A DNA stretch of 64,000 bases, taken from the NCBI GenBank assembly GCA_049322955.1, contig JBMOPU010000012.1:211581-275580 (forward strand), written 5' to 3'. A program made the position numbers and the translations under genes. The notes under the pieces are model-generated. The model searched no databases and had not been told where the DNA came from. It saw only the letters and a list, made by a program, of their open reading frames with translations. Position 1 is the first letter of the stretch. Every line of letters starts with the position of its first letter. This document shows positions 48,121 to 64,000 of the stretch, piece by piece. The stretch comes from Patescibacteria group bacterium. GTDB lineage: Bacteria; Patescibacteriota; Microgenomatia; UBA10105; UBA927.

Positions 48121-49761
48121 TCATTGCTTCCAATAGGGAATAATGCAGGGGTCCTCGCCCTGCCACCAGGGGGTCTGGCGGGGGGTTGTGTTTGCCGTAC
48201 GGTTATCAAAAATCCACGTAAGCGGCGTATTTTTAACTGAAATAGTGTGTGCCGGGGTATGGTGCAGAAGATACTCGTACGCGTAAAAAAACCGATAAAG
48301 GAACGATTGTCGGTTCAGCAGGATAACAAAATCCGATTCGTCATACCCGTATCGGTTAAGATTGGTGATGAGGTCGGGACGCAGATATTGACTGGCCACC
48401 GGCGCATTCATCACGATATGCACTCTTGCATTGGTCGGGGCATGCTCGTTGACCCACAGAACCGCCGCTTTCTGCGACGTGCCCCAGTAATCAAGATCGT
48501 ACTTGCCCATTGCGCCCGAAACACCGCCGACGAGGCTATTAAAATAGGAGATCTGATACGGATGATGCGTCACGTTTATTGCCGTAAGCACGACAACTAC
48601 TGCGGCAAGCAGTACAAAACGGAGTTTTTGTGACGATATCCGACCGAGGATCCATTCCATACCGATTGCCGCCAGTGCCGCGATAGGAAAGAGTACTTCT
48701 TCGAAATGACGAATCCCGTCTATGACACCTACTTTGGGAATAACATATCGGGTGAGCGGAAGAAACAGCCACAGAAGTAAGAGGAGCGAGAGTGTAGCAG
48801 GTGTTTTTTGTGCGCGAAAAAGCGCAATCCCCGCCAACACACCTCCGACGATAAACGGAATGAAAATAATAAGCGGGGTGGTGATTGCAAGATACCAATA
48901 GGGGTAATACCAGGGAACCGTCGAACCGGAGCAATACCATTTGCCGTCAAGCAATACCTCGATGTTGTTTGTACCGATACCGAAAGTGGAAAACGCGTGC
49001 CATAACTGCGCCACGGGATTGGGCCAGAACACCCACCAGAGCAAAAAAGCAAACACGGGAGCGGCAAGCGGATACCAGGCAAAAAATCGCGGTACCGCTT
49101 TTTTGGTATTAAGCGGTACGAGCACGTAGAGCGCCGTAAAAATCGCGGGGATAAAAATGCTATTCACTTTGATGTTAAACGCGATGGCAAACGCGACACA
49201 TGAAAGGATGAGGTCAATGACGCGTTTTTTTGTAAAAAGCCGGTAAATTGCCCACATATTCACGGCGAAAATGACGCTTGAGGGTATATCCTTCATATTG
49301 TTATGAAGATCGCCGAAATACCGGGGGGTGAGTGATAAAAACAGCATGCCGATGACGGCACCCGTTGTCCCGAGGGTCGGGCGAAGCAACACAAAGAGCA
49401 CAACGCTTCCCAGAATGCCCCACAACACGATCGGAAGATGATAGGCGACGTCCGGGGCAAGGATCGGAACGGTTTTGGTAAAAAACAGGTACGATGCCAC
49501 GGGCGGGATACTCATGATTGCCCCGTACGGCAAAGACACCGCGCGACGAGGGTCAGGTTCCATAAACGGGAGTGCCCGCGGTTCAAGTGTTTCGGGGCGG
49601 ATGCCGAGTAACGCGCCGCCGCCGAAAAAGTGGTAATGAAAATCCCACGTAAAGCCATACGAACCCATGATCGATAGATGTGCTACAAGAAGACCGAGCG
49701 CTATCAAAACGCCGGAATACCGGGAAACCCGGGACAGCAGTGATTTAGCGGATAACTTCAT
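48121..49761 (-). CDS. PMT_2/ArnT-like (GT39/GT83-type) GT-C membrane glycosyltransferase
   Basis: First loop WDFHYHFFGG…PFMEPDPRRAVSLPYG, followed by 12 or more TM helices. Start trimmed from the track's 49869 to Met37 (nt 49761), so overlap with the upstream gene drops to 17 nt. Confidence 0.6.
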   Translation of the reverse strand: MKLSAKSLLSRVSRYSGVLIALGLLVAHLSIMGSYGFTWDFHYHFFGGGALLGIRPETLEPRALPFMEPDPRRAVSLPYGAIMSIPPVASYLFFTKTVPILAPDVAYHLPIVLWGILGSVVLFVLLRPTLGTTGAVIGMLFLSLTPRYFGDLHNNMKDIPSSVIFAVNMWAIYRLFTKKRVIDLILSCVAFAIAFNIKVNSIFIPAIFTALYVLVPLNTKKAVPRFFAWYPLAAPVFAFLLWWVFWPNPVAQLWHAFSTFGIGTNNIEVLLDGKWYCSGSTVPWYYPYWYLAITTPLIIFIPFIVGGVLAGIALFRAQKTPATLSLLLLLWLFLPLTRYVIPKVGVIDGIRHFEEVLFPIAALAAIGMEWILGRISSQKLRFVLLAAVVVVLTAINVTHHPYQISYFNSLVGGVSGAMGKYDLDYWGTSQKAAVLWVNEHAPTNARVHIVMNAPVASQYLRPDLITNLNRYGYDESDFVILLNRQSFLYRFFYAYEYLLHHTPAHTISVKNTPLTWIFDNRTANTTPRQTPWWQGEDPCIIPYWKQ

Positions 49762-51394
49762 AGATTGCGGCTTTGCCGTTTTGGAACGTTTCCCGAAGGA
49801 ACGGATACGGAGGGTACGGCTTTGCGGTAGCGTGTGCATACACCACCTTGCCGATGGTATGATCGGCAAGAAATTTTTGCGCTTCGGCGCTTGTCATCTG
49901 TCCGCTAAAAAATCTGGTTCGCAACTGTTCTTTGGTGGAACCGTACAAGGTGTGTATCGGATGCCCGGTGAAAGAAATCTTTCCCGCAATCGCGGGAATC
50001 ATCACGTCATAGGGAAGGGCGGGATCCGTCAGCACCACTGCAGATTCGGGCATTCGCGCAAGGGCGGTAAGGATCGCCATGTCTTCTTGGGGTACATAAT
50101 TTAACGGACTCGAAAGCACCGGGATCATTCGTGACTGCACCTGTTGAATAATCGCGGGTACGGTGAGGAGACAGTAGAGGCACAAGAGAACATTCATAAT
50201 CACCGTCATCAGCGTTGTTTTTTCAAGCGTAGGCAACCGTCGATGCATCGTATCGGTAAGCTGTCTTGACAGTATGAGCAAACCCTCCGCCGCGATCAGG
50301 TAATACATAAGCAGGGATGCGGGGTGTATCCATCGGATAGGACTGGTGTGAAGAAGCGTTGGAACGGGCGAAACAAACACCGCAAGAGACAACCCTCCGT
50401 AAAGAAGGAACACGAGTTTTATGGGTGATAGCGTGCGAACAAATGCGGGCACGCCAAACGGCAGGAAAAAAATGACCGGTCCCATGGCAAGCAGTATTGC
50501 GGGCAGTGATACGCTCACTCGTTGGGCGGCCTCCCAATTTTTTGCGGCCGCATACACCGGTGAGGCGTCAAACGAAGCGTTCACAAGGTACGCACCGATT
50601 CCCGCAGTCATAAGGCTTGCACCGATACTCAATAGACCTTTTGGTGACGGTCTTTGGATTATCGTCGTCAGGAGTATAGCCGCGCAAAGAAGCAACAATT
50701 GTATCGGCGAAAGCGTTGCGGCAAGAAAACAAAGCAACGGAAGCGCAAGAAATGCCCGGCCGGAATGTTTTGGTTGTCCTTTTGCCGTCACCACACGCTC
50801 AAAGAGCAAAATAACGCTAAGGATAAGTACGGTCTGGAAGGCCTGATGGGGAACCCCTCCCAGTCGGTTCAGCGCCGGGGTGGGGGAGAACCACATGTCA
50901 CGCCAGAGGGTGAGCGTCCCGGTTTTGAATAATGATGGGAGCGAAATAAAATTAGATGCGGTAACGGCAAACAAAAATCCGATGACACGGGCAAGCGGGT
51001 TTGTGGGATACAGGTGCTTGGTGACCGCATAGATGAGAAAAAGTAACGTTATGATCAGGAGAAATAAACTGGCGCTGTACGAAGAAAATGCCGAAAGTCC
51101 CGTCATGCTCCCGAGATTGCCGATAAGTACGTTGGGCCAGTAGACCCAGGTTGCGGCAACGGGTTCGTTGGTAAAAAGGCTTCGCGATACGAAGATGTTT
51201 CCCCGTATGCCTTCGGCTATTTGGGATGCGTAGAGAAAATAATCAGCATAATAATGCGCAATCCACGTAAAGTATGTTCCGGGAGGCTTGGCAATCCATG
51301 AAACGAGAACATGCCAGAAGTTCGCAATAATAATCCCTGCGGCTATCATGCCGATGAGTATCGTCTCAGTTCGCTTTGCCGTCATATCTCTCAT
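49745..51394 (-). CDS. Polytopic membrane protein, GT-C-like; paralog of the 40615 gene
   Basis: See 40615..42213. Confidence 0.5.
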   Translation of the reverse strand: MRDMTAKRTETILIGMIAAGIIIANFWHVLVSWIAKPPGTYFTWIAHYYADYFLYASQIAEGIRGNIFVSRSLFTNEPVAATWVYWPNVLIGNLGSMTGLSAFSSYSASLFLLIITLLFLIYAVTKHLYPTNPLARVIGFLFAVTASNFISLPSLFKTGTLTLWRDMWFSPTPALNRLGGVPHQAFQTVLILSVILLFERVVTAKGQPKHSGRAFLALPLLCFLAATLSPIQLLLLCAAILLTTIIQRPSPKGLLSIGASLMTAGIGAYLVNASFDASPVYAAAKNWEAAQRVSVSLPAILLAMGPVIFFLPFGVPAFVRTLSPIKLVFLLYGGLSLAVFVSPVPTLLHTSPIRWIHPASLLMYYLIAAEGLLILSRQLTDTMHRRLPTLEKTTLMTVIMNVLLCLYCLLTVPAIIQQVQSRMIPVLSSPLNYVPQEDMAILTALARMPESAVVLTDPALPYDVMIPAIAGKISFTGHPIHTLYGSTKEQLRTRFFSGQMTSAEAQKFLADHTIGKVVYAHATAKPYPPYPFLRETFQNGKAAIYEVIR

Positions 51395-51424
51395 TGTAGG
51401 GGAAATACCGGTAATGTTAAATTG

Positions 51425-52957
51425 ATGAGCAGTATGGGAACGGAAAACGATCGGGTCATACGTTTGTCTTCGCTTATTATTTTTTTCGGCGTTGTTGCGT
51501 TATTTTTGCTCCTTTGGGCAAAAATGCAGTTGGGGCAAATACGATATTTTGATGCGGACGAGCTGGCATATCTTCATTGGGCACATAATGTATTCGACGG
51601 TAAATTACCGTATCGGGACTTTCTTTCGTATGTGCCGCCGCTCTTTTACGCCGTGTTGTCAGTGCTTTTTACCGTAGTGGAAGGAGTGGGGATATTAAGT
51701 GGGGCGCGGTTTTTTTCGTTTTTCATTTTTGTATTGCTTTGCGCCTGTTTGGTTTGGCTGTTTTCCCGGGCACGCACCGCGACGTATGCCGTGTATGCGG
51801 CGGTGTTTCTGGCTTTTTTGCCGATGCCTGCAGACAAGCTTATCGAAGTTCGCCCGGATACCATGGCGATGCTTGTGGCCCTTGTCGCTATGGTGCTTCA
51901 CGGCATTGCGCTTACGGGAAGCCGTCGCACCTCGCTTTGGGCGGTTTCGGGGTTTCTGTATGGCGTTTCGGTATTGATTCTTCCCAAAACGGTGCCGCAG
52001 GTAGCGGTTGCGGGTCTGGTGACAGTGTTGTGGCGATTGTTTGCGCCCGGTGATGCGAAGGGAAAAAACCGCCTGCTCTCCGCGTTTCTTTTCGGCGGCA
52101 TCATTCCGTTCATTTGTTTCGGGATATGGGTATTGTTCCGGTTGGGGGTAAATAGCGTTGATACGGTTATCTATTCTTTAGTCAGATTACCCCTTGAGGT
52201 GAACCGTCTGGGAATCCAATTTCCCCTGCAACCCGATCTTTTTTTCTATCCCAACACGGTGTTGTACGGACAGGAAGGATGGGGAGCAGGTCTCATTGTC
52301 ACGCATATTCTTTGGATCATCGGTATCGGTACTGCCAGCATGCGGCTGGTTACCCCCTTCATACCGGGCGGAAAAAAAGAAGCGTATCGGGAGCTTTTGA
52401 TTGCCGGCTCGTTTTTTGCCTATGTCGTCACGTTTATTTACGGCTATCCGATGCGACATTCGCAATACCTTATCCCGATCGCGGTGTTCGTTGCGTTCTA
52501 TACGGCGGATTTTTTGAGTATCGTGATGTCCCGGCTCAATACATCGCGCCTGGGGAGAATCGTCGGTATTGTATTCCTGTTCGGTATGCTCATTGGTGCG
52601 GTGCATCTTACCCGGCAAACCACCGGGGTGAAGATGGGCTATACCAATGCGGAAGATTATGCCGTGCTCTCGTATGCGCTCCGAACGATTCCCAAAAACG
52701 CATATGTTTTTGATCTCGTGGGATCGACGATTTACTTTCGGGATCCGTTTTATGTTTCCGCTGTGCCGTTCGGGCAGTGGATGCCGTATGTTACCCGACC
52801 GTTCGGCTCCGTGGTTACCGCGCTGGAAACAACAAACACACGGTATATTTATGAAGGTCGACTTGCAAGGGTAGAAAGCCTGCCCGCCGCAACAACGGCG
52901 CACATCCGGCGACTCTATGCTCCGGTGCCGGGGATCCCGGGAATGCTCCGTCAGTGA
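51425..52957 (+). CDS. PMT_2/ArnT-like GT-C membrane glycosyltransferase
   Basis: Loop-1 DE motif FDADELAYLHWAHNVFDGKLPYRDF, then many TM helices. Start trimmed to ATG 51425 (MSSMGTEN…), which avoids overlap with the divergent gene. Confidence 0.5.
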   Translation: MSSMGTENDRVIRLSSLIIFFGVVALFLLLWAKMQLGQIRYFDADELAYLHWAHNVFDGKLPYRDFLSYVPPLFYAVLSVLFTVVEGVGILSGARFFSFFIFVLLCACLVWLFSRARTATYAVYAAVFLAFLPMPADKLIEVRPDTMAMLVALVAMVLHGIALTGSRRTSLWAVSGFLYGVSVLILPKTVPQVAVAGLVTVLWRLFAPGDAKGKNRLLSAFLFGGIIPFICFGIWVLFRLGVNSVDTVIYSLVRLPLEVNRLGIQFPLQPDLFFYPNTVLYGQEGWGAGLIVTHILWIIGIGTASMRLVTPFIPGGKKEAYRELLIAGSFFAYVVTFIYGYPMRHSQYLIPIAVFVAFYTADFLSIVMSRLNTSRLGRIVGIVFLFGMLIGAVHLTRQTTGVKMGYTNAEDYAVLSYALRTIPKNAYVFDLVGSTIYFRDPFYVSAVPFGQWMPYVTRPFGSVVTALETTNTRYIYEGRLARVESLPAATTAHIRRLYAPVPGIPGMLRQ

Positions 52958-56777: not shown

Positions 56778-57564
56778 GGCGATGTATCGCGTGGAGGATA
56801 CTCATTGGTGGTTTGTATGCCGCCGACGGTTTGTACGACGGTTATTTGCCCGCATGGGAATCGTGAGTACGGGGGAGAAAAAAAAGAATCGACGTATCGC
56901 CGATATCGGGGCGGGAACGGGGGGCATGATCCGTGTGCTTGAAGAATACGGCACTCCTTTTGGCATAGAGCCGAACCCTGAAGGCAGATTCTATGCCAAA
57001 AAGCGCGGCATTACGCTGAAGGACGGGAACGCTACCCGAACGGGTCTTGCGGCAAACAGCATGGATATCGTCTGTTTTTTTGATGTGCTGTACCATCGGG
57101 GAATCGATGAACAAAAAGCGCTTGCGGAAGCGAAACGTATCTTAAAACCCGGCGGAATACTTTGTATCACCGACTGTGCCTTACCGATCCTTCGCGGTCC
57201 GCATGATCGCGCCGTTTCAGGCGGCAAACGATATACGCGGGAAAGCATGGTTTCCGGTATCACGCGTGCGGGTTTTGTGCCCGTGTATGCAACCTACACC
57301 TATTTTCTGCTGTTGCCGCTCGTTGCGATCAAACGGCTTGTTGACCGATTGGTGATGCCCTCGGCCGTTAACCGCTCCGATGTCCGACCGGTGCACCCGA
57401 TACTCAACGCACTGTTTGCCAATGTCACACTTCTTGAGGAGCTGGGAATCGGGAAAGTGACGTATCCGTGGGGATCATCGTTGCTGGTGGCGGCCCGAAA
57501 GGACGATGTGACTCGCACCAAACAACTTGTACCGCGACGCAAAGAGAGAAAGGGTAAGGTATGA
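56758..57564 (+). CDS. Class I SAM-dependent methyltransferase
   Basis: Motif I IADIGAGTGGM. Also DIVCFFDVLYH and ILKPGGILCITD. Confidence 0.7.
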   Translation: MEKPEYEAMYRVEDTHWWFVCRRRFVRRLFARMGIVSTGEKKKNRRIADIGAGTGGMIRVLEEYGTPFGIEPNPEGRFYAKKRGITLKDGNATRTGLAANSMDIVCFFDVLYHRGIDEQKALAEAKRILKPGGILCITDCALPILRGPHDRAVSGGKRYTRESMVSGITRAGFVPVYATYTYFLLLPLVAIKRLVDRLVMPSAVNRSDVRPVHPILNALFANVTLLEELGIGKVTYPWGSSLLVAARKDDVTRTKQLVPRRKERKGKV

Positions 57565-58889
57565 GGACAGGCATCAAAACCGCGGCGCGACACCTACTCC
57601 GGCGGGTGTCACATCCGCGCGGGTTTGATCCGCAAACGTTTCCCCGGCGCCCGCTTTCGACTACGGTTATCCGGGCACGTCTTGCCGATGTCGGATGGAA
57701 TCTCGCCGACCGGCCGATCGGTTATAACATGGGGTCACTCTACACTTCACCGCATCCGCTCTCGGTTCATGCCTATCGGACCCTTGTTCACGCAAATCCC
57801 GGTCATTTGGGATCGTATGACGAAACCTCCCTGCGCTATGCCGACACGACGACGATGGAATATGAAGTGATCCGGAAAATGGCGGATTTATACAACGCCC
57901 CGCGGGATGTCACGGGATATATCACTTCAGGAGGAACGGAGGGAAATCTGTATGCGTTTTGGCAGGGTCAATCCTTCGTCGCGCCAAGGGGTAAGAGTTG
58001 TTTGTTGGTCACGCCGCTCACGCATTATTCGGTAAAAAAGGCGGGAGCGATTGCGGCAAAAGACACCTATGCCGTCGCGCTTGAGCAGGATACATGGGGG
58101 ATGAATGCGGAAGATTTCCGTCGCCGGGTACTCACCTTGTATCGTCGCGGGTATCGGGGATTTATCGTATGCCTTACGGAAGGATACAGTACCACGGGTA
58201 CCGGGGATAATACGACGGCGATAACCCGAGAGGCAAAGAAGCTCCGAAGTTCACTTCGGGGAATCGAATTTTATTTTTGGATTGACGCGGCATTAAACGG
58301 ATTGGTACTGCCGTTTCGTGAACGCGGGTTTTCCCCTTTTGCAAACCCTGAAATAGCGGCGGTAGTCGTTGATTTCCATAAATTCGGATTGGCGCCGTAT
58401 CCTGCCGGTATAGTGTTGTATCGCAACAAATTCATGCGGGGCATCAGTTCTCCGATCGATTACTTGCCGCAACGGGATACGACCGTTTCCGGTTCACGTT
58501 CGGGTATTCCCGCCGCGGCGGTTTGGGCGGGCATCCATGCCGTCGGGGCGCGTGGTCTGAAGGATATCGTTTCCCGACAAACGGCGAACAAACAATGGTG
58601 CATAACGCATCTTGCTATCGCAGGAGACGCGATACGGATCATCACCGATGCGGGGAGTGTTACCATGGGAATGATGTTTCCTACGCTATCCAACGGAAGA
58701 TTACCCCGATGGCTGGAGCAGAAATATTGGCTCTATGCCGGACGGACGGATTCCTACGGCCTGCCCGATATGCAGAAGTCTTTGTACAAAGTCTTTTTCC
58801 TCCCGCACCTCACCCGACGTGTCGTATCCGAATTTACCCGTGATATCCTCTCCGTGGTGGCAACGACGAAAAATGCCTCAAAAAAATAA
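57561..58889 (+). CDS. Group II PLP-dependent decarboxylase-like enzyme
   Basis: TSGGTEGNLYAF (compare SGGTEAN in this family) and the PLP-lysine block VDFHKFGLAPYPAGIVLYR. Confidence 0.6.
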   Translation: MRTGIKTAARHLLRRVSHPRGFDPQTFPRRPLSTTVIRARLADVGWNLADRPIGYNMGSLYTSPHPLSVHAYRTLVHANPGHLGSYDETSLRYADTTTMEYEVIRKMADLYNAPRDVTGYITSGGTEGNLYAFWQGQSFVAPRGKSCLLVTPLTHYSVKKAGAIAAKDTYAVALEQDTWGMNAEDFRRRVLTLYRRGYRGFIVCLTEGYSTTGTGDNTTAITREAKKLRSSLRGIEFYFWIDAALNGLVLPFRERGFSPFANPEIAAVVVDFHKFGLAPYPAGIVLYRNKFMRGISSPIDYLPQRDTTVSGSRSGIPAAAVWAGIHAVGARGLKDIVSRQTANKQWCITHLAIAGDAIRIITDAGSVTMGMMFPTLSNGRLPRWLEQKYWLYAGRTDSYGLPDMQKSLYKVFFLPHLTRRVVSEFTRDILSVVATTKNASKK

Positions 58890-58972: not shown

Positions 58973-59704
58973 ATGATCCATGCGTTTCGCGAATCAGTGC
59001 TGTCAATGTACGAATCGGTACGTCTCACGGTGTTCGGATTCATCTATGATCTCCTGGCGAAGCCGACGCTTTTTCAATCAACCTTCGGTAGAAGACTGAT
59101 TCGCAACTACAGCGGTGATGCCGGGCAACATACGGACACGGTTACGGGTTTTACGGGCTACGGTCTGATTCATTATGCGATGGTTCGCAACCTCCGCCCC
59201 GCACGCATTCTCTGTATCGGGTCACGGAAAGGATTCATACCGGGAATCCTTGCGCTTGCCGCGCGTGACAATGCCGTGGGGCATGTGGATTTTGTCGATC
59301 CCGGGTTTGACCGCGCCGGCCATCCCGGCAAAAGCTGGGGAGGCGTGGGATTTTGGAAGAAAGGGGTGGCTCAAGCGCATTTTGCAAAGTTGGGAGTCGG
59401 GTCCCGGATCACGCATTATCCGATGACTAGCCGTGCGTTTGCAAAACAATATCCGCGAAGAAAATACGGCTATATATACATTGACGGAGACCATTCATAT
59501 ACGGGGGTTTCTACCGATTACCGGATGTTTTGGCCGCGCCTTGTCCGCGGAGGCTTGATGGTGTTTCACGATATTGCGGCACACGGAAAACTGGAAGGGG
59601 GTATCTTTGGCGTGCATACGCTGTGGAAGAATATACCGGTCGAACAAAAAATCTGTTTTCCTGTTCCCCGCGAGTCCGGTCTCGGTATCGTACAAAAGCC
59701 GTAG
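58973..59704 (+). CDS. Class I SAM-dependent methyltransferase (Methyltransf_24/TylF-CmcI-like)
   Basis: ILCIGSRKGFIPGILALAARDN…YIYIDGDHSYTGVSTDYRMFWPRLVRGGLMVFHDI. Confidence 0.6.
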   Translation: MIHAFRESVLSMYESVRLTVFGFIYDLLAKPTLFQSTFGRRLIRNYSGDAGQHTDTVTGFTGYGLIHYAMVRNLRPARILCIGSRKGFIPGILALAARDNAVGHVDFVDPGFDRAGHPGKSWGGVGFWKKGVAQAHFAKLGVGSRITHYPMTSRAFAKQYPRRKYGYIYIDGDHSYTGVSTDYRMFWPRLVRGGLMVFHDIAAHGKLEGGIFGVHTLWKNIPVEQKICFPVPRESGLGIVQKP

Positions 59705-59727: not shown

Positions 59728-60660
59728 TCAGCCGGGCAGATGAAACGCGGAAATTTCAGGATCTTTTCGGATGAGGCGAACAACCCGCGGATCAGGTGAC
59801 CAAAGACCGATACAGTTCCGATGCCATAGGAGGAATCGCATACCGGGGAGTGCATCGGCGAAGCGCTCAAGCGGTATGGGCACTATACCGAAATTGACGA
59901 TAACGATGCCGTGCGAAGAAATACGTTTTCGGAGAGCGGAAAAAAACGTGTCGGCCGCGACATCTTCGGCAAGACGAACTCCGACAAACATATCAACGAT
60001 GGCGACATCGTAGATACCCCGTGCAGTTCGGAGGAATCGCATCGCTCCCGTTTGGTGCCACGTCATCTTGGGTATGACCTTTGTGGGGACAAAGTACCGT
60101 CGTGCCGCCTGTATGATGGTTTCCGACGGTTCCACCAGATCGACCGAGTCGGCAAGCCGGTGGGTGATGAGCCCGATGCCGATTGATCCGGTACCGCCGC
60201 CCAATATCAGTGCGCGACGCCTCGTACCGGTCGGTCGTCGTATAGCAAGGAGAATACTCCGCACCACATCAAGGTATGCCCATGTATCGCCGGGTGTTCG
60301 ATGCACCATTGATTGTATGCCGCCGTCCGCACAATCCCTGAGGATACGTTTATTTTCGCGAGGGCGTACGGGAAGAAAAAAATCAACGATATCAAAATCA
60401 ATGCCGTGCGCCGTCAGCCGATTTCTTCTGATCCAGAAACCGCCGGTTACGGCAAGGAGTACGGTGAATCCGTACATTGAGAGCAATACGCCGATAAGCA
60501 GGTGTCCCGCAGTCGTGTATCGCGAAAGAAATGCGGCCGTCCCAAGAACAAGCGTGAGAGTAAGCAATACTTTGCTCCCGAAGGGGAGCGTATGAAGCCA
60601 GATCGAGAATCGGACGTTCTGCATGGATATGGGTGAATGAGTTGGGTGTGGTGTCGTCAT
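59728..60660 (-). CDS. Membrane-anchored spermidine-synthase-fold (aminopropyl/methyl-transferase-like) protein
   Basis: Two N-terminal TM helices, then ALILGGGTGSIGIGL…VDLVEPSE…DVAIVDMF…GIVIVN. ATGA overlap with the upstream GT2 gene. Confidence 0.55.
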   Translation of the reverse strand: MTTPHPTHSPISMQNVRFSIWLHTLPFGSKVLLTLTLVLGTAAFLSRYTTAGHLLIGVLLSMYGFTVLLAVTGGFWIRRNRLTAHGIDFDIVDFFLPVRPRENKRILRDCADGGIQSMVHRTPGDTWAYLDVVRSILLAIRRPTGTRRRALILGGGTGSIGIGLITHRLADSVDLVEPSETIIQAARRYFVPTKVIPKMTWHQTGAMRFLRTARGIYDVAIVDMFVGVRLAEDVAADTFFSALRKRISSHGIVIVNFGIVPIPLERFADALPGMRFLLWHRNCIGLWSPDPRVVRLIRKDPEISAFHLPG

Positions 60661-61577
60661 ACGGGTTGGGGAACACGGGTGAACGTATGTATATGATACC
60701 CTCCGGACTTTGCCGCGGCCATAGCCGCGTGAAACAGGAATATCCCGGCTTTTTCGGCGGGAGTGACGCCCCGATACAGTGCAGGGAGGGTAGCAGACTC
60801 AATGCTACGGGATGAAAGAAGTCCATAATTGTTTATAAACGTCGGATCGTGCAGATACATCCTTTCAAGCAGTGCCTTTGTCCTGCCATACAGGTATGCC
60901 TGTCGGAGCAAGGTACCGAGCGGCGCGTTTTTTTTCTCATGGGTCACCGCCGCCGTATGGACATAGAAGAGGGGAATATGGTGCCGAATAAGGCGACAGG
61001 CAAGTTCCTGATCTTCTCCGATAAACGGAAATACATCGGCAAGAAACGGTTCGGGAAATCGGGATAGTGTGGCGCGGTAGGTAAAAATGTTGGCGACGAT
61101 AAGCGCGGTAAGTTTCGGAAACGGAGGAGTCGGTCGCATGCCGAGAGCGGTTGTCTCCCGGTGAAATTGAGACAATCTGACACGTTCGGCTAATCCGTCG
61201 GTTTCATACCGTTGGCGAATAGCCCCTTGATACACCGCATCGGGAACGCTTGTCTTTCTTCGGGAAAGCGTGCTCCGGACGACGGCGAGCCATCGGGGAG
61301 AAACCATACTGTCATCGTCGATGAATGCTATACCTTCCCGCGAGGCAATACGTGCTCCCGTATTGCGACAGTGCGATGCGCCCCTGCGGGTCTCGACGCG
61401 GTAGAGAATGCGATACCGTTTCCCGAATCCGTCGACGATTTGTTTGGTATCGTCTGTGCTGTCATTGTCAACCACGATGACTTCATCGGTGCGGGTGAGT
61501 TGGGGAACCAGACGCTTGAGGCATCGGGCGAGGGTTGCCGCCCTGTTTTTGGTTGGAATGACGATGGAAACATTCAT
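60657..61577 (-). CDS. GT2 (GT-A fold) glycosyltransferase
   Basis: MNVSIVIPTKNRAATL…VIVVDNDSTDDT…FIDDDSMV. Its start ATG overlaps the PqqD-like TGA (ATGA). Confidence 0.75.
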   Translation of the reverse strand: MNVSIVIPTKNRAATLARCLKRLVPQLTRTDEVIVVDNDSTDDTKQIVDGFGKRYRILYRVETRRGASHCRNTGARIASREGIAFIDDDSMVSPRWLAVVRSTLSRRKTSVPDAVYQGAIRQRYETDGLAERVRLSQFHRETTALGMRPTPPFPKLTALIVANIFTYRATLSRFPEPFLADVFPFIGEDQELACRLIRHHIPLFYVHTAAVTHEKKNAPLGTLLRQAYLYGRTKALLERMYLHDPTFINNYGLLSSRSIESATLPALYRGVTPAEKAGIFLFHAAMAAAKSGGYHIHTFTRVPQPV

Positions 61578-61858
61578 GAAACAATCATAAGCAGTCCGTC
61601 ACGAAGGTATTGCCGTATAAATCCGATAACATCATGTTCGGCAACGCGTTCAGGGATAGAAAACTTTGCGGCCAATCCGCGGACAAGTGATGAAACGGGT
61701 ACCGCCCTGGTTGTTTTTGCCCAAAGAAACCCCGCGGTTTCGTTGAGTTTTCTGACGTATTGTTTGTTGGGTTCCAGGATCACCCACTCGGTTCCGACGC
61801 GCTTGCTGACGATACCGGAACCTCTCACAACACGAGCTCCAAGAAGATCAGCGCTCAT
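61574..61858 (-). CDS. PqqD-family (RiPP recognition element-like) small protein, 94 aa
   Basis: …WVILEPNKQYVRKLNETAGFLWAKTT…DVIGFIRQYLRDGLLM matches the PqqD pattern (y.LN.tga.iW…Dv..fl..L.~gl). Confidence 0.6.
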   Translation of the reverse strand: MSADLLGARVVRGSGIVSKRVGTEWVILEPNKQYVRKLNETAGFLWAKTTRAVPVSSLVRGLAAKFSIPERVAEHDVIGFIRQYLRDGLLMIVS

Positions 61859-61912
61859 GGGTATATGCTTTCTTCGTGCGATAAACGTAAAGAGTCATCA
61901 CACGATCAGTCG

Positions 61913-61984
61913 TTAGGCACTTTCAACCAACACCACCTCGATCTTGACTCGGCGATCCGCCGGTTTCCGATAGGTCATAGACAT
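61913..61984 (-). CDS. Candidate small ORF (MSMTYRKPADRRVKIEVVLVESA) upstream of the PqqD-like gene. Not in the ORF track. PqqA-like?
   Basis: GGAGG RBS (revcomp at 61988-61992), ATGs at 61984 and 61978, TAA at 61915-61913. RKPA plus IEVVLV resembles the PqqA leader and core (KKPAF…LEVTLY). Confidence 0.25.
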   Translation of the reverse strand: MSMTYRKPADRRVKIEVVLVESA

Positions 61985-61999
61985 ATTCCTCCAAGACCC

Positions 62000-62029
62000 A
62001 TGCTATCGTATTGTCGCTTTGAGTGTCAA
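62000..62029 (-). promoter_or_regulatory. Sigma70-like promoter candidate for the small ORF / PqqD-GT2 operon
   Basis: Minus strand: TTGACA (62029-62024), 18 nt spacer, TAGCAT (62005-62000). It overlaps the stop codon of the peptidase gene. Confidence 0.25.
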
Positions 62030-63558
62030 TATTCGTTGAATAACGGTTGTAACGCTTCGGCGATATGTCGTGCCACGGTGGAATTAGCGTCGGGAATCAC
62101 GTGACATTCGTCGATAAAAATCGGCGTGTCGGTTTCTTTCTTGAAGATGGTGCTCATATTGATAAAGTTGGGGATAGGGGTTTGCGCAAACCGTTGGTTG
62201 GCAAGGTCATGTGCCGAACGAATGACCGGATCGGTTTTGGGAAAGCGCCGTTCTTCTTCGGTCAGGGACTTACCGTATATGGTAGGTTGCCAAAGCAACA
62301 GGTAGCGGAATCCGTATCCGCGGGAGAGCGCATCGATAACATTGGCATTTTTTCGATAATTTTCTACGGCATGTGCGGCTATTTCGGCATCGGTAGGCGG
62401 TAACGGAGCCTTGTGCACGGGCAAATTCCGCAATCGTTTTATGACCGGAGAGAGGATTTGCCGGGAATACTGGATTATTTTAACGCGATCGACAATGGAT
62501 CGTCCCCAGTCGTTGAGGAGACCGGGAAACGTTCGATAGGCGAGTGACGCTTTCGGGAATACGATAGCATTCATGTCGCCGAGCATATCCCGTACGGTCT
62601 GTTCGTTACGAACAAGTTCCGGCGACGTGCGCAAATCATTGCACCCGTCATAAAAAACCACGATATCCGGTCGTTTACCTTCCTTAAGGAGGAGAAGCAG
62701 ATACATAAGTTCCTGATTGCTGTTATAGGAAATATGCCCGTAATTGACGACCGTTGCCCGCGGTTTATTTTTATTGAGTATTTGACTTACCCGGGAGGGA
62801 ATTGTTTCTTCATCTTTTGCGTATATACCCCAGGTGGTGGATCCGCCAAAAAACCAGATTACCGGGAGCGCTTCCTCCTTTGGGTTGCCGATAGTCCGTC
62901 GTGCCATATCGGGTTCAGTGTTGACATAGGGAGTCTGCATGCCGTTATATGTCCAACCAAGGAACGGGTGATAACGGGAGGTAAGCGTCGCATCAATCGT
63001 TGATGTCCATGCACTGCGTGCGTCGGTTGCATACCAGTCTTGCGCCTGTCGTTTGGCCCTCCCGATCGCGACAAAATAGCGTGATACGTCAACTAACTGA
63101 AACAGGAGTTCGAAGCAGAGCAGAAACAGGCCGATGACGACGATGCGGGTACCCCATGCGGACGGTTCCGTTACGGGTCGGGCTTTGCCTAAAACATGGC
63201 GGGGGTGCGTCGTATAGGGATCGCGCCGGTCGAGCCGATCGCCTTTTGTCACAAATTGCATCCCCGACGGCGCTATACGTTTCTCAATAACGCGGTGCAC
63301 GAGGATACCTTTCTTATCAGGGCGGACATACGCGATGATGTCGTTTTCCCGTATCGTATCGACGGGTACCCGGGTAATGCGTACTTTTTGACCGACACGG
63401 ATCGTGGGGGTCATGCTATCCGTTTTCGCATGCGCGATCACCGATGAACCGTAGGGAAGCCGTTTGACTAATGCATACACCGTACGGGAGGTATTTGCCC
63501 GATTTGTTTTATCGCGCTGTTTTTTTTCGGTTGACATACGCAGAGCAGAGTATATCAT
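62026..63558 (-). CDS. Fusion protein: Sec11/SipW-type (S26B, Ser/His) signal-peptidase-like domain, TM helix, then SGNH-hydrolase-like domain
   Basis: N-terminal part: TDSMTPTI (Ser box), VHRVIEK (His in the Lys-box position), TKGDRLDRRD. Then TM IVVIGLFLLCFELLF. Then FFGGSTTWG / DGCNDL / DECH (SGNH blocks I, III, V). Confidence 0.5.
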   Translation of the reverse strand: MIYSALRMSTEKKQRDKTNRANTSRTVYALVKRLPYGSSVIAHAKTDSMTPTIRVGQKVRITRVPVDTIRENDIIAYVRPDKKGILVHRVIEKRIAPSGMQFVTKGDRLDRRDPYTTHPRHVLGKARPVTEPSAWGTRIVVIGLFLLCFELLFQLVDVSRYFVAIGRAKRQAQDWYATDARSAWTSTIDATLTSRYHPFLGWTYNGMQTPYVNTEPDMARRTIGNPKEEALPVIWFFGGSTTWGIYAKDEETIPSRVSQILNKNKPRATVVNYGHISYNSNQELMYLLLLLKEGKRPDIVVFYDGCNDLRTSPELVRNEQTVRDMLGDMNAIVFPKASLAYRTFPGLLNDWGRSIVDRVKIIQYSRQILSPVIKRLRNLPVHKAPLPPTDAEIAAHAVENYRKNANVIDALSRGYGFRYLLLWQPTIYGKSLTEEERRFPKTDPVIRSAHDLANQRFAQTPIPNFINMSTIFKKETDTPIFIDECHVIPDANSTVARHIAEALQPLFNEY

Positions 63559-63667: not shown

Positions 63668-64000
63668 ATGCCGAAGGAACAATCACCCGTGGTGCTGATG
63701 CTTTCGGGCGGTATGGATTCCGCGGTCGCGTGGCACGCCCTGATCCGGACCTATCGTCTCATTCCTTACCCGTTGGTCGTCGGACGCGGGAGGTGGGATC
63801 CGCAGGTGCGGGCCGTTCATGCGATATCGGACGAAATCAGACAACGGTTTCCCGACGTGTGGCGTCCGCCGCACGTCGTATATACAAAGGACGCGTTACG
63901 GTCCGTATATCCGTCCCGTGACCCGCGTCGTATGGACCCACAGGAGATTTTGGAGCAATACAGTACCGCAAACGATTTCCTTTCCAATCCTCGATTATGG
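63668..64000 (+). CDS. PP-loop ATP-pyrophosphatase family protein (QueC-like?), 3'-truncated by the window end. Not in the ORF track
   Basis: Frame 2 is open from ATG 63557 (or 63668) to the window end. PVVLMLSGGMDSAVAWHAL contains the SGGxDS PP-loop. Confidence 0.5.
   Translation, partial: MPKEQSPVVLMLSGGMDSAVAWHALIRTYRLIPYPLVVGRGRWDPQVRAVHAISDEIRQRFPDVWRPPHVVYTKDALRSVYPSRDPRRMDPQEILEQYSTANDFLSNPRLW

Follow-up and report, generated by a model that had tools for sequence, protein, structure and literature searches.

Several bacterial pathways are known in which a short ribosomally made peptide is recognized by a protein of the PqqD family, called a RiPP recognition element (RRE), and then processed. 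The closest to the locus analyzed here is the LPP (linear polyphosphorylated peptide) family of Bacillota, which was described in May 2026 (Popov et al., Nat Commun 2026, PMC13381572) and whose clusters encode LppA/B/S/K/N/D. In this system, the discrete RRE LppB binds a YxxP leader motif, and LppS, a soluble archaeal-type (SipW-like) signal peptidase I with a Ser/His/Asp triad (S29/H68/D93), has been shown experimentally to be an RRE-dependent leader peptidase. LPP clusters also include a kinase, an NTP-transferase and an MsbA-type pump. In lasso peptide pathways, a [Y/W]xxP leader is bound by the B1 RRE, while B2 is a cysteine protease and the cyclase C is an asparagine-synthetase-type PP-loop enzyme that activates an Asp/Glu carboxylate. 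In the PQQ (PqqA-E) and mycofactocin (MftA-F) pathways, a very short peptide is bound by a PqqD-family RRE and a peptidase releases a very small C-terminal product, which in mycofactocin is glycosylated by the family-2 glycosyltransferase (GT2) MftF. In fact, [W/Y]xxP is a recognition motif that many RREs bind (PMC12710340).

Here, we analyzed a stretch of 64,000 nucleotides (hereafter, the window) from a Patescibacteria group bacterium with a 0.99-Mb genome (GCA_049322955.1, contig JBMOPU010000012.1, positions 211,581 to 275,580), in which an unannotated short ORF lies next to a PqqD-family gene inside a cell-surface sugar locus. Related loci from other lineages were fetched for comparison and are designated below by L numbers, and related proteins by P numbers. 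The features of the window are the following:

62000..62029 (-), promoter-like site TTGACA-18 nt-TAGCAT (10 of 12 consensus matches) in front of the short ORF; its -35 hexamer overlaps the stop codon of the upstream peptidase gene
61988..61992 (-), GGAGG ribosome-binding site
61913..61984 (-), short precursor-like ORF, 23 aa from the first ATG, MSMTYRKPADRRVKIEVVLVESA
61574..61858 (-), discrete RRE of the PqqD family, 94 aa (MFZ5534807.1)
60657..61577 (-), GT2, 306 aa (MFZ5534806.1)
59728..60660 (-), membrane protein with N-terminal hydrophobic helices and a spermidine-synthase/methyltransferase-fold (SpeE-like) domain, 310 aa, the last gene of the coupled operon
62026..63558 (-), 510-aa fusion of an N-terminal SipW-like signal peptidase I domain (about aa 27-127, nt 63178-63480), one hydrophobic helix and a C-terminal SGNH/GDSL hydrolase domain
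63698..64000 (+), start of a divergently transcribed QueC-like PP-loop ATPase gene, cut off by the end of the window (full gene in L001 at 7343-8161, from which the coordinates were mapped)
58973..59704 (+), Methyltransf_24 class I methyltransferase, a conserved neighbor transcribed convergently with the operon
57561..58889 (+), PLP-dependent group II decarboxylase, 442 aa, a conserved neighbor

The short ORF as a conserved gene

The original prediction described the short ORF, the PqqD-family gene, the GT2, the overlap between these last two genes, the promoter and the ribosome-binding site, and each of these features was found on the minus strand where it had been placed, so that the observation is confirmed. 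The gap between the stop codon of the short ORF and the start of the RRE gene is 54 nt. One correction concerns the initiation codon, as GGAGG is 9 nt upstream of the second ATG (61978) but only 3 nt upstream of the first (61984) and, in addition, four strain variants (L001, L002, L005 and L006) have ACG in place of the first ATG. The likely product is therefore the 21-aa form, MTYRKPADRRVKIEVVLVESA, which contains a YxxP recognition motif (Y-R-K-P), a conserved K-I-E-V-V-L stretch and a variable tail of four residues, VESA.

Eleven related short ORFs were read in ten other lineages, all of them beside the RRE gene or in its gene cluster. They share a fixed spacing (Tyr1, Pro4, Asp/Glu/Ser/Leu6, Ile/Leu/Val11 and Val/Ala13) and stop 4-8 residues after position 13, and only 2-6 variable residues follow the conserved motif. 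In L098 there are two tandem copies with different tails, a typical pattern for precursor genes. When a loose motif, Y..P.[DES]....[IL].[VA], was searched in the six-frame translation of 1.04 Mb of fetched DNA, every PqqD-adjacent short ORF read up to that point was recovered. Although nine other hits were obtained, one of them the chance match that brought in L013, none of these nine lies beside a PqqD gene in an ORF that stops 4-8 residues later. Among the five closest orthologues (the window, L007, L010, L011 and L012), differences at codon positions 1/2/3 are 37/38/92, and synonymous codon differences number 71 as opposed to 42 non-synonymous ones. The same five share a perfect TTGACA, an 18-nt spacer, a TAnnAT -10 box and a purine-rich Shine-Dalgarno-like site, which is GGAGG in four of the five.

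It could be argued that an ORF of only 21-23 codons, not called by gene finders, is a chance open frame in an intergenic promoter region. In fact, its exact sequence is absent from a 15-billion-protein collection, and no accession number is left free for it between the neighboring proteins in the NCBI record. However, this possibility is refuted by the conservation of the amino acid sequence with synonymous drift across lineages whose GT2s are only 43-49% identical, together with the fixed motif spacing, the conserved promoter and ribosome-binding site and the exclusive placement beside the RRE gene. Lack of conservation of the short ORF in syntenic loci had been set beforehand as a reason to discard the prediction, and the opposite was observed.

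The RRE, the peptidase and the neighboring enzymes

The 94-aa protein passes the PqqD profile (PF05402, E=2.7e-11, 44 bits against a cutoff of 23.4), as had been predicted. However, its closest solved relatives do not include PqqD itself. The best solved relative of the family profile is LppB (9x8z_B, E=1.7e-13), and the lasso-peptide protein TbiB1 (E=6.6e-11) is also close, while PqqD is much more distant (E=8e-4). The best structural match of the AF2 model (pLDDT 90.8) is the TbiB1-leader complex, with TM 0.80/0.85. The residues that bind Tyr and Pro of the leader in the LppB crystal structure (PMC13381572), L32, N33, W40, D70 and F74, correspond to L38, N39, W46, D76 and F80 in the window, which are invariant or nearly so in an alignment of the RREs with LppB.

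The upstream protein was given little weight in the original prediction, but it is the key link to the LPP family. Its peptidase domain matches TIGR02228 (E=1.6e-13), and its C-terminal domain matches PF13472. The predicted catalytic residues S48, H88 and D113 are invariant in 10 lineages, and their spacing (40 residues from S to H and 25 from H to D) is close to that of LppS (39 and 25). The peptidase domain is present in every related locus that covers the region. It stands alone in L007, L010, L011 and L012, while in L014 and L016 it is fused to a Wzt-type polysaccharide-export ATPase. A related GDSL protein stands alone in L098 and L016.

The GT2 (PF00535, E=4e-24) is translationally coupled to the RRE by an ATGA stop/start overlap at 61574-61577, and a second ATGA at 60657-60660 couples it to the SpeE-like gene. 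It has no predicted membrane span and carries a conserved aromatic-rich, amphipathic C-terminal helix. Its best NCBIfam match is MftF, but with 98.9 bits against a cutoff of 280, and its AF2 model (pLDDT 93.4) shows a generic GT-A fold with no close solved relative (TM about 0.55). The four orthologues found as proteins (P0003-P0006, 43-49% identity) all have an RRE directly upstream and, more generally, a GT2 lies within 87 nt downstream of the RRE in 9 lineages. However, L014, L016 and L098 have the peptide, RRE and QueC-like genes but no adjacent GT2, and the GT2s next to RREs in the three locus types (A, B and C; the window is of the A type) are not each other's nearest relatives.

The other neighbors are also recurrent. 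The SpeE-like protein (PF01564, E=4.6e-9) has orthologues in L007 and L012, and a Spermine_synth-annotated gene lies between the ABC ATPase and permease genes in L012 and in the P0054 locus. Although the 101-aa fragment of the QueC-like protein inside the window gives no Pfam hit on its own, a family HMM finds this gene in all A-type loci that cover the region. In L040, a QueC-like enzyme is fused to an RRE domain next to a YxxP short ORF, which is the only RRE fusion found within this family, while a more distant PqqD relative, P0139, is fused to an NTP-transferase domain. Orthologues of the methyltransferase (PF13578, E=6e-18) occur in L007, L010, L011, L014, L016 and L098. Those of the decarboxylase (PF00282, with histidine/tyrosine decarboxylase-like NCBIfam matches below cutoff) occur in L011, L014 and L016, the last with two copies.

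Possible roles of the peptide

The interpretation in the original prediction, that is, glycosylation of a PqqA-like peptide guided by the RRE, is only partly supported. It holds that a conserved gene, inferred from its sequence to be translated, is paired with a PqqD-family RRE in syntenic loci, that pqqB, pqqC and pqqE are absent from the window and that the SipW-like peptidase and the SpeE-fold membrane enzyme belong to the conserved set. By contrast, the likeness to PqqA is limited to the shared [W/Y]xxP motif, and the proposed LEVTLY-like core is in fact part of the conserved motif.

We consider it likely that the locus encodes a minimal RiPP pathway with the recognition and processing logic of lasso peptides and LPPs. 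While the peptide gene and the recurrence of its neighbors are shown by the sequence comparisons, the rest of this model is inferred, as no product has been observed and nothing here shows that any enzyme touches the peptide. From homology to solved complexes, it is inferred that a strong dedicated promoter drives a 21-aa peptide whose YxxP motif is bound by the RRE. By analogy to LppB/LppS, the RRE would present the peptide to the soluble peptidase domain and, if cleavage occurs at the LPP position, a C-terminal piece of 1-5 residues would be released. This position is extrapolated from a distantly related system, and a core of 2-6 residues is unusually short for a RiPP. From gene coupling, co-occurrence and one gene fusion, the RRE would also deliver the peptide to tailoring enzymes. 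The first candidate is the GT2, whose likely target would be the Ser, Thr or Tyr that sits in the short tail wherever a GT2 is present, and the second is the QueC-like ATPase, whose likely target would be a carboxylate of the acidic residue (Asp or Glu) found in every A-type tail. The methyltransferase, the decarboxylase and the SpeE-like enzyme are further candidates. These correlations between tails and enzyme sets rest, however, on about 12 peptides that are not phylogenetically independent. Finally, the fusions of the peptidase to the Wzt-type ATPase in two lineages and to a membrane-anchored SGNH hydrolase in this genome, together with the constant placement of the module inside a surface-glycan locus, suggest that the product ends up at, or is attached to, the cell envelope.

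Glycosylation of the peptide by the GT2 is plausible but unproven. Although it is favored by the hydroxyl residues in the tails and by the adjacency of RRE and GT2 in three GT2 subgroups, the generic fold, the lack of a single clade and the only RRE fusion found in the family being to the QueC-like enzyme count against it, and the GT2 could simply be a glycan-building enzyme of the surrounding locus. In a more tentative alternative, which seems less likely, the peptide, RRE, peptidase and PP-loop enzyme would form the real peptide-modifying unit, while the GT2 would work on a lipid-linked or free glycan. In this view, the PP-loop enzyme would activate a carboxylate of the tail and join it to an amine, either of an amino sugar of the glycan or of a decarboxylase-derived compound, the peptide stub would decorate or cap the exported polysaccharide and the leader would be cut off at the Wzt exporter. 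The QueC-like::RRE fusion, the presence of QueC-like genes in A-type loci where the GT2 is absent next to the RRE, the acidic A-type tails, the peptidase-Wzt fusions, the helix of the GT2, which suggests membrane-surface work, and the occurrence of Bac_transf, Wzm/Wzt, Wzy_C and DegT aminotransferase genes in the loci agree with this alternative. By contrast, the tight ATGA coupling of RRE and GT2 and the recurrence of a GT2 immediately after the RRE in 9 lineages are hard to explain if the two never act together, no PP-loop enzyme of the QueC type is known to ligate peptides to glycans and there is no direct evidence for any peptide-glycan linkage.

It is unlikely, although possible, that the peptide is a small regulator or adaptor that, bound to the RRE, switches the GT2 or the exporter on or off, or a translated upstream ORF that tunes expression of the operon. 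The peptide is almost entirely leader and sits directly upstream of the operon with its own promoter and, moreover, LppB was insoluble unless co-expressed with its peptide, which shows that leader peptides can act as stabilizing ligands. Nevertheless, the invariant triad of the peptidase and the fusions of RRE domains to enzymes point to processing, and the tandem copies in L098 fit substrates better than regulators. In addition, the RNA hairpin between the short ORF and the RRE gene is no more stable than shuffled sequence (z=-0.62), and no riboswitch or leader RNA was found in a search for such elements. A redox cofactor pathway, in which the short ORF would be an analogue of PqqA or MftA, is very unlikely. 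The peptide is as short as PqqA and has a [W/Y]xKP motif, MftF is the best match of the GT2, and the B-type relatives end in LEVYTYL and sit next to a B12-radical SAM enzyme. However, no radical SAM, PqqB, PqqC or MftC/D/E homologue was found in the window, the PqqD equivalog model scores 20.9 bits against a cutoff of 46, and the RRE is much closer to LppB and lasso-peptide B1 proteins than to PqqD.

Comparison with described systems

The module shares with LPP clusters the discrete RRE with conserved Tyr/Pro-contacting residues, the SipW-like peptidase, the location in a surface-polysaccharide locus and a precursor that starts with a short Lys-rich N-terminus followed by Y-x-[K/R]-P. Furthermore, the B-type and C-type relatives (L015, L017, L099 and L040) also carry an HprK/ScmC-like kinase, and the B-type loci carry a PF14907 NTP-transferase. 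In the window, however, there is no kinase, no NTP-transferase and no MsbA-type pump, and the conserved partners are instead the coupled GT2, the QueC-like ATPase, Methyltransf_24, the decarboxylase, the SpeE-like enzyme and, in relatives, Wzm/Wzt exporters. The precursors are 20-30 aa long (36 aa in the B type) as opposed to 35-200 aa, the 2-6 residues after the motif contrast with a 45-aa core, and the extended LPP consensus, YxxPxVLxHQxIxFETxxS, is not matched beyond YxxP. The peptidase domains and the RREs are distant relatives of their LPP counterparts (local identities of 23-39% and 22-29%, respectively; best E-values of 1e-5 to 1e-13), well short of the 1e-23 network edge used by Popov et al., and the host is a member of Patescibacteria instead of Bacillota.

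Lasso peptide pathways, for example TbiB1/TbiA and paeninodin-type clusters, share the RRE fold, the knobs-into-holes binding of a [Y/W]xxP leader, here inferred from homology, and the company of a PP-loop ATPase, which here is QueC-like. No B2 cysteine protease was found, its place being taken by the serine signal-peptidase-type protease, and no asparagine-synthetase-like cyclase was found either, while the tail of 2-6 residues is too short to form a 7-9-residue macrolactam ring with a threaded tail. The PQQ and mycofactocin pathways resemble the inferred module in the very short peptide bound by a PqqD-family RRE, the release of a very small C-terminal product by a peptidase and, in mycofactocin, the GT2. 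Nevertheless, no PqqE/MftC, PqqB, PqqC, MftD or MftE homologue was found in the window, the equivalog models for PqqD and MftF are far below their cutoffs and the cross-linked residues (Glu/Tyr in PqqA and Val-Tyr in MftA) are absent.

Finally, in L014 and L016 the fusion of the leader-peptidase-like domain to the exporter ATPase would couple cleavage to export as in the C39-domain peptidase-containing ABC exporters (PCATs) of RiPPs and bacteriocins, and the domain occupies the C-terminal position where some Wzt O-antigen exporters carry their glycan-cap-binding module. The fused peptidase is, however, of the S26 signal-peptidase type and not C39, and the exporter is of the ABC-2 Wzm/Wzt polysaccharide or teichoic-acid type, while in the window genome this fusion is not present and the peptidase is fused to an SGNH hydrolase instead.

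A compact gene set around a short, conserved ORF

The gene set lies on the minus strand, and the features originally predicted from the sequence are accurately described. In the direction of transcription, it consists of:

62026-63558, minus strand: a 510-aa protein with an N-terminal archaeal-type signal peptidase I region and a C-terminal GDSL/SGNH domain
62029-62000, minus strand: a promoter-like TTGACA-18-TAGCAT
61988-61992, minus strand: GGAGG
61913-61984, minus strand: the short ORF
61574-61858, minus strand: a 94-aa PqqD-family gene (MFZ5534807.1), 54 nt downstream of the short ORF
60657-61577, minus strand: a 306-aa GT2 (MFZ5534806.1), whose ATG overlaps the PqqD stop codon (ATGA)
59728-60660, minus strand: a 310-aa membrane protein with a predicted spermidine-synthase fold, overlapping the GT2 stop codon in the same ATGA fashion

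These assignments were confirmed by Pfam and NCBIfam, with PF05402 at E=2.7e-11 for the PqqD-family protein (44 bits against a gathering cutoff of 23.4), PF00535 at E=4e-24 for the GT2, Spermine_synth at E=4.6e-9 for the membrane protein and TIGR02228 at E=1.6e-13 for the signal peptidase region. One refinement concerns the start codon, as the second ATG (61978) has the proper 9-nt spacing from GGAGG and four of six strain variants of the same species (L001, L002, L005 and L006) have ACG in place of the first ATG, at the position equivalent to 61983, while the rest of the ORF is unchanged. This argues that translation starts at the second ATG, and the product is most likely the 21-mer MTYRKPADRRVKIEVVLVESA. 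In the NCBI record, on a 990,597-bp contig, the accession numbers of the neighbouring proteins that were identified leave none free for the short ORF.

The surrounding 30 kb is a cell-surface glycan locus containing a DegT aminotransferase, several GT2s, a hexapeptide acyltransferase, PMT_2- and YfhO-type membrane glycosyltransferases, a PIG-L deacetylase, a sugar epimerase and, just beyond the window, a Wzy_C gene. The stretches at 37850-39709 (minus), 46078-48117 (plus), 48121-49869 (minus) and 49745-52957 hold an NPCBM-domain protein, the YfhO- and PMT_2-type glycosyltransferases and two large ORFs without any Pfam match (49745-51394 on the minus strand and 51311-52957 on the plus strand) that overlap head to head by 84 nt. 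Additionally, a single open reading frame of 11,574 codons (9-34733, plus strand) fills more than half of the window and may begin upstream of it. In its first 9,800 residues, Pfam finds only an FHA domain (aa 2878-2949) and a weak DEAD-helicase-like stretch (aa 178-288), and the rest has no recognisable domain.

The four GT2 orthologues found as proteins (43-49% identity) were traced to their contigs (loci L007, L010, L011 and L012), and all of them have a PqqD gene directly upstream. In all four, a short ORF upstream of that PqqD gene encodes a clearly related peptide. A word-index search with the 94-aa protein found only the same species, but a full HMMER scan of representatives gave 209 relatives at E no greater than 1e-3, and more distant PqqD relatives led to further loci with the same kind of ORF.

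Peptides encoded by short ORFs related to that of the window
L007 (GT2 orthologue locus): MKKKKITYQKPADIRRRIEVACKTLETF
L010 (GT2 orthologue locus): MKKQTRKAAVKYQKPADVRTKITVVLAETY
L011 (GT2 orthologue locus): MAFKKKRVIKYQKPADVRTKIEVVAVAISD
L012 (GT2 orthologue locus): MKVHKKKVMKYTKPADVRTKIEVVSIATSD
L014 (more distant locus): MKKKYVRPSSKRNKIMACLEIM
L016 (more distant locus): MKRYQPPKDKKIALKVVLLE
L098 (more distant locus), copy 1: MKKKKAYCKPRDACLPIVALLTTE
L098, copy 2: MKKKKNYQAPYDRCTKITVALWWWDDW
L015 and L017 (more distant loci): 36-mers ending KKEY[HR][ST]PEE[RK]VEKLEVYTYL
L040 (more distant locus): MKRAKATPGYKKPALKEKKVKVKVWTMSY

All of these share Tyr1, Pro4, an Asp/Glu/Ser/Leu at position 6, an aliphatic residue at 11 and Val/Ala at 13, and all stop 4-8 residues after position 13. 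In L098, the two tandem precursor-like ORFs (3388-3552, plus strand) lie between the QueC-like gene and the RRE gene, and they share a leader but have different tails (LLTTE and LWWWDDW), while the RRE is followed by a membrane-anchored GDSL protein instead of a GT2.

Three lines of evidence show that the short ORF is not a chance open frame, and its conservation, which had been proposed beforehand as a test, was predicted correctly. When a loose regular expression for the pattern was searched in six frames across 1.04 Mb of fetched DNA, it found all the PqqD-adjacent ORFs read up to that point and gave nine other hits, none of which lies beside a PqqD gene in an ORF that ends 4-8 residues later. 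Among the five closest versions, differences fall 37/38/92 on codon positions 1/2/3, and synonymous codon differences outnumber non-synonymous ones, 71 to 42. The same five share a perfect TTGACA, an 18-nt spacer, a TAnnAT box and a purine-rich Shine-Dalgarno-like site, which is GGAGG in four of them. By contrast, a strict back-translated peptide pattern gave a single hit in the representative genomes of 185,579 species, in a Betaproteobacteria MAG (L013, 7411-7448, minus strand; one of the nine other hits of the loose expression is the chance match that brought in this locus). As that hit has no start codon and no RRE and lies in front of an ArsC-like gene, we judged it to be chance. In its strict form the family is therefore absent from those genomes, among which the organism studied here is apparently not represented. 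None of the six A-type peptide sequences that were looked up (type A is the locus type of the window, see below) is present in a collection of 15 billion proteins. An attenuator or terminator between the peptide and RRE genes was also considered, but the hairpin there is not better than shuffled sequence, and Rfam finds nothing in the window.

The RRE and the signal-peptidase-type domain

A profile of the PqqD-like family matches solved structures in the order listed below, with LppB as the best match and true PqqD as the most distant of the five.

Matches of the family profile to solved structures
9x8z_B, LppB: E=1.7e-13
5v1u, TbiB1: E=6.6e-11
9x90_B, PbaB1: E=3.4e-10
6jx3, TfuB1: E=1.8e-6
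3g2b, true PqqD: E=8e-4

The AF2 model of the window protein (pLDDT 90.8) superposes on TbiB1 bound to its leader peptide with TM 0.80/0.85, in agreement with the winged-helix RRE fold. In the LppB crystal structure (Popov et al. 2026, PMC13381572), D70 hydrogen-bonds the leader Tyr, N33 fixes the kink at the leader Pro, F74 stacks on the Pro and L32 lines the second hydrophobic pocket. When nine RREs of this family were aligned with LppB and two LppB-like proteins from the supplement of that paper, the equivalent positions, L38, N39, W46 and D76 of the window protein, were invariant, and F80 was nearly so. This is strong indirect evidence that the protein binds the YxxP motif of the adjacent peptide as LppB and the lasso-peptide B1 proteins bind theirs.

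The signal-peptidase-type domain, whose importance had been overlooked in the original prediction, is key to placing the system. A small HMM built from the N-terminal domain of the 510-aa protein, whose gene lies directly upstream of the peptide gene, and from the small ORFs upstream of the other peptide genes finds this domain in every related locus that covers the region. It stands alone, at about 112-166 aa, in L007, L010, L011 and L012, and it is a 132-152-aa protein in the B-type loci. By contrast, in L014 (8237-9259, minus strand) and L016 (5301-6320, plus strand) it is fused, with its catalytic Ser/His/Asp, to the C-terminus of the Wzt/TagH-type polysaccharide-export ABC ATPase (E=1.5e-19 and 1.6e-17). 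We are not aware of a described exporter with an S26-type peptidase fused to it. In an alignment of 10 lineages, S48, M49, P51, H88, R89, K105-G106-D107 and D113 are invariant, which is the Ser/His/Asp signature of archaeal/ER-type signal peptidases. The spacing is 40 residues from S to H and 25 from H to D, close to the 39 and 25 of LppS (S29/H68/D93). Popov et al. showed experimentally that LppS is the leader peptidase of LPP precursors and that it needs the RRE LppB to cleave, and they also noted that such clusters sit inside capsule loci and that the final product could not be identified.

Locus types and candidate tailoring enzymes

Three locus types may be distinguished. Type A comprises the window, L007, L010, L011, L012, the P0054 locus (that of another relative), L014, L016 and L098, which carry the peptide, RRE, peptidase, a QueC-like PP-loop ATPase and Methyltransf_24, while a PLP-dependent decarboxylase, a SpeE-like membrane enzyme, GDSL, a carbamoyltransferase, sulfation genes and Wzm/Wzt are often present too. 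Type B comprises L015, L017 and L099, which carry a ScmC/HprK-like kinase, RRE and GT2 in one operon, together with a PF14907 NTP-transferase. L015 and L017 also carry a B12-binding radical SAM enzyme next to the 36-aa peptide (L015 10651-10761 and L017 12854-12964, both minus strand), whose Glu-Val-Tyr-Thr-Tyr ending is closer to the cross-linked motif of PqqA than the window peptide is. Type C is represented by L040 (459-5204 of contig JAANMU010003768.1), where a ScmC/HprK-like kinase overlaps a GT2, followed by a 29-aa YxxP ORF (2165-2254, MKRAKATPGYKKPALKEKKVKVKVWTMSY), an oxidase-like 463-aa protein and a 426-aa fusion of a QueC-like PP-loop domain with a C-terminal PqqD/RRE domain. Type B is architecturally the closest to LPP. 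Additionally, P0139 (498 aa), a relative of the window RRE found among the representatives, has a PF14907 NTP-transferase domain with the RRE at the C-terminus, which is another Rosetta-stone link, between this RRE group and the paeninodin/LPP-type tailoring enzymes. In L007, L011, L012, L016, L098 and the P0054 locus, a carbamoyltransferase (NodU/CmcH type), sulfotransferase-like proteins, APS kinase/ATP sulfurylase, methyltransferases and an ABC-2 exporter whose ATPase also matches NodI are combined in a set that resembles the decoration and export genes of rhizobial Nod factors.

Regarding the enzymes that might use the RRE, the GT2 is supported by the ATGA coupling in the window, by the presence of a GT2 within 87 nt downstream of the RRE in nine lineages and, in type C, by the GT2 that overlaps the kinase gene next to the peptide gene. 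Moreover, eight of eight peptides from GT2-containing loci have Ser, Thr or Tyr in the residues after position 15, while only one of four peptides from loci without an adjacent GT2 does (Fisher's exact test on a hand count, p of about 0.02, although the lineages are not independent). However, these observations do not allow a firm conclusion. Although confidence in the GT2 model is high, structure, fold and PDB sequence searches found only generic GT-A relatives, from which the acceptor cannot be inferred. With regard to polyprenyl-phosphate sugar synthases of the DPMS/GtrB type, in which a GT-A domain is followed by C-terminal transmembrane helices, DPMS (5mlz) matches at E=1.8e-9 over the first 92 residues only, PcManGT and the hyaluronan synthases (TM about 0.6) rank by fold among generic GT2s such as WrtF, AvpGT, K4CP, TarS and ppGalNAcT, and the model shows long C-terminal helices but no clear membrane span. 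The RRE-linked GT2s of types A, B and C are not each other's closest relatives, and the nearest non-B relatives of the B-type GT2s are GT2s with no RRE in the DNA available, so that a single clade of RRE-linked GT2s was rejected. A metagenome scan with the GT2 alignment keyed on generic GT2 motifs and, of 80 loci, only L018 (a truncated orthologue) and L040 belong to the system, which does show that ordinary GT2s of 26-45% identity are not RRE-linked.

The QueC-like enzyme is present in all type A loci that cover the region, lies immediately next to the peptide gene in L014, L016 and L098, and is fused to an RRE domain in L040, and every type A tail contains Asp or Glu. PP-loop enzymes such as QueC, asparagine synthetase and the lasso cyclase activate carboxylates by adenylation. 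A modification of a tail carboxylate, such as amidation, nitrile formation or ligation to an amine, is therefore a reasonable guess, but it is only a guess.

Three fusions or couplings tie the module to glycan assembly or export: peptidase::Wzt in L014 and L016, peptidase::TM::SGNH in the window, and the RRE-GT2-SpeE-like translational coupling in the window, in addition to which a Spermine_synth-annotated gene sits between the ABC ATPase and permease genes in L012 and in the P0054 locus. Considered as gene fusions, peptidase::Wzt, peptidase::SGNH and QueC-like::RRE are three independent, testable links between peptide processing and the assembly or export of surface glycans, a connection that the LPP authors raised but could not resolve. 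The ties to glycan assembly or export motivate the second-ranked explanation, in which a peptide stub would be attached to a glycan, and a more speculative proposal, which we consider unlikely although it is not excluded, in which a ribosomal peptide would serve in these ultra-small Patescibacteria as the handle for building or capping a cell-surface glycan. In this view, the RRE would hold the 21-mer by its YxxP motif, and either the GT2 would start a sugar chain on the Ser/Thr of the tiny tail or the PP-loop enzyme would join the carboxylate of the tail to an amino sugar. The decorated chain would then be passed to a Wzm/Wzt exporter, where the signal-peptidase-type domain, physically fused to Wzt in some lineages, would cut off the leader. 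The result would be a surface polymer carrying a genetically encoded 1-5-residue peptide stub, a hybrid of RiPP and polysaccharide biosynthesis that has not been described.

Taken together, the existence and conservation of the short ORF, the family assignments and the gene fusions are shown by the analysis, while the binding of the peptide by the RRE, its cleavage and its modification are inferred from homology, gene order and analogy. We have high confidence that the peptide, RRE and peptidase form a functional unit, whereas glycosylation of the peptide by the GT2 remains tentative. The original interpretation, which proposed an RRE-guided glycosylation of a PqqA-like peptide or of another RRE-recognised substrate, is only partly supported.

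Comparison with known systems

The readings of the locus as a PQQ, mycofactocin or lasso-peptide pathway, and of the GT2 as a glycocin glycosyltransferase, were not supported. The PqqD equivalog model (TIGR03859) scores 20.9 bits against a cutoff of 46, there is no Tyr after the Glu in the window peptide, unlike the Glu-x3-Tyr pair of PqqA, and no radical SAM, PqqB or PqqC domain was found in the window, so that the PqqA-like reading was rejected. The best family match of the GT2, MftF (TIGR03965), is far below its cutoff (98.9 bits against 280), and no MftC-like radical SAM enzyme was found. Against the SunS family of glycocin S/O-glycosyltransferases (TIGR04195), the GT2 scores 23 bits against a cutoff of 350, and SunS structures match only its N-terminal nucleotide-binding part (E about 3e-6). 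As for lasso peptides, neither a B2 transglutaminase-type leader protease nor an asparagine-synthetase-like macrolactam cyclase appears in the Pfam or NCBIfam scans of the window ORFs, the PP-loop enzyme present is QueC-like, and the 2-6 residues that follow the conserved motif are too few for a 7-9-residue ring plus a threaded tail (15 residues or more, with Asp/Glu at position 7-9), so that the lasso-peptide reading was rejected.

The LPP family (PMC13381572) is the only characterised example of RRE plus signal-peptidase-type RiPP systems. The window shares with it the LppB-related discrete RRE that keeps the residues which hold the leader Tyr and Pro, and the signal peptidase domain with its invariant triad. 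However, our peptidase domains and RREs are only distant relatives of the published ones. The best BLASTP E-values of the peptidase domains to cluster 1 and cluster 3 sequences from Supplementary Data 1 are 1e-5 to 1e-13 (only 2.6e-5 for the window domain, to a cluster 3 member), short of the edge of 1e-23 used in the similarity network of that paper, so that they do not belong to its cluster 1, although they do sit closer to the RRE-associated clusters 1 and 3 than to genuine SipW. For the window RRE and most of its relatives, the best E-value against the LppB-like RREs is about 1e-6. Of the extended leader consensus YxxPxVLxHQxIxFETxxS, only Y1 and P4 and, loosely, a hydrophobic residue near position 11-12 are shared, and our peptides are 20-36 aa with 2-6 residues after the conserved block, against LPP precursors of 35-200 aa with a long variable core. 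The HprK-like kinase (LppK), which installs the class-defining polyphosphate on the core Ser, was searched for with an HMM built from the ScmC/HprK-like proteins of L015, L017 and L099, which finds nothing in the window or in the 8 kb beyond its end that L001 covers, although the kinase is present in B-type and C-type relatives. Similarly, no ORF resembling the PF14907 NTP-transferase (LppN) was found in the window or in L001, and no ABC transporter domain that could correspond to the MsbA-like exporter (LppD) was found in any window ORF scanned.

The pairing of an RRE with a signal-peptidase-type leader protease was first reported in May 2026, and only for Bacillota. The present finding extends it to Patescibacteria (CPR), organisms with genomes of about 1 Mb that keep few dispensable genes, with a GT2, a QueC-like PP-loop ATPase, a decarboxylase and methyltransferases in place of the kinase and NTP-transferase, and with precursors that are among the shortest known and are missed by gene callers. 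The system offers a compact set of genes for heterologous reconstitution and, possibly, a new peptide modification by a QueC-type enzyme. As the window lacks the kinase, the NTP-transferase and the pump and does not match the leader consensus or the network cluster, the system is not a member of the LPP family as defined. It is best described as a Patescibacteria variant of the RRE plus signal-peptidase-type RiPP systems, with a different tailoring set and exceptionally short precursors, that by inference would work like the LPP and lasso systems at the level of recognition and processing.
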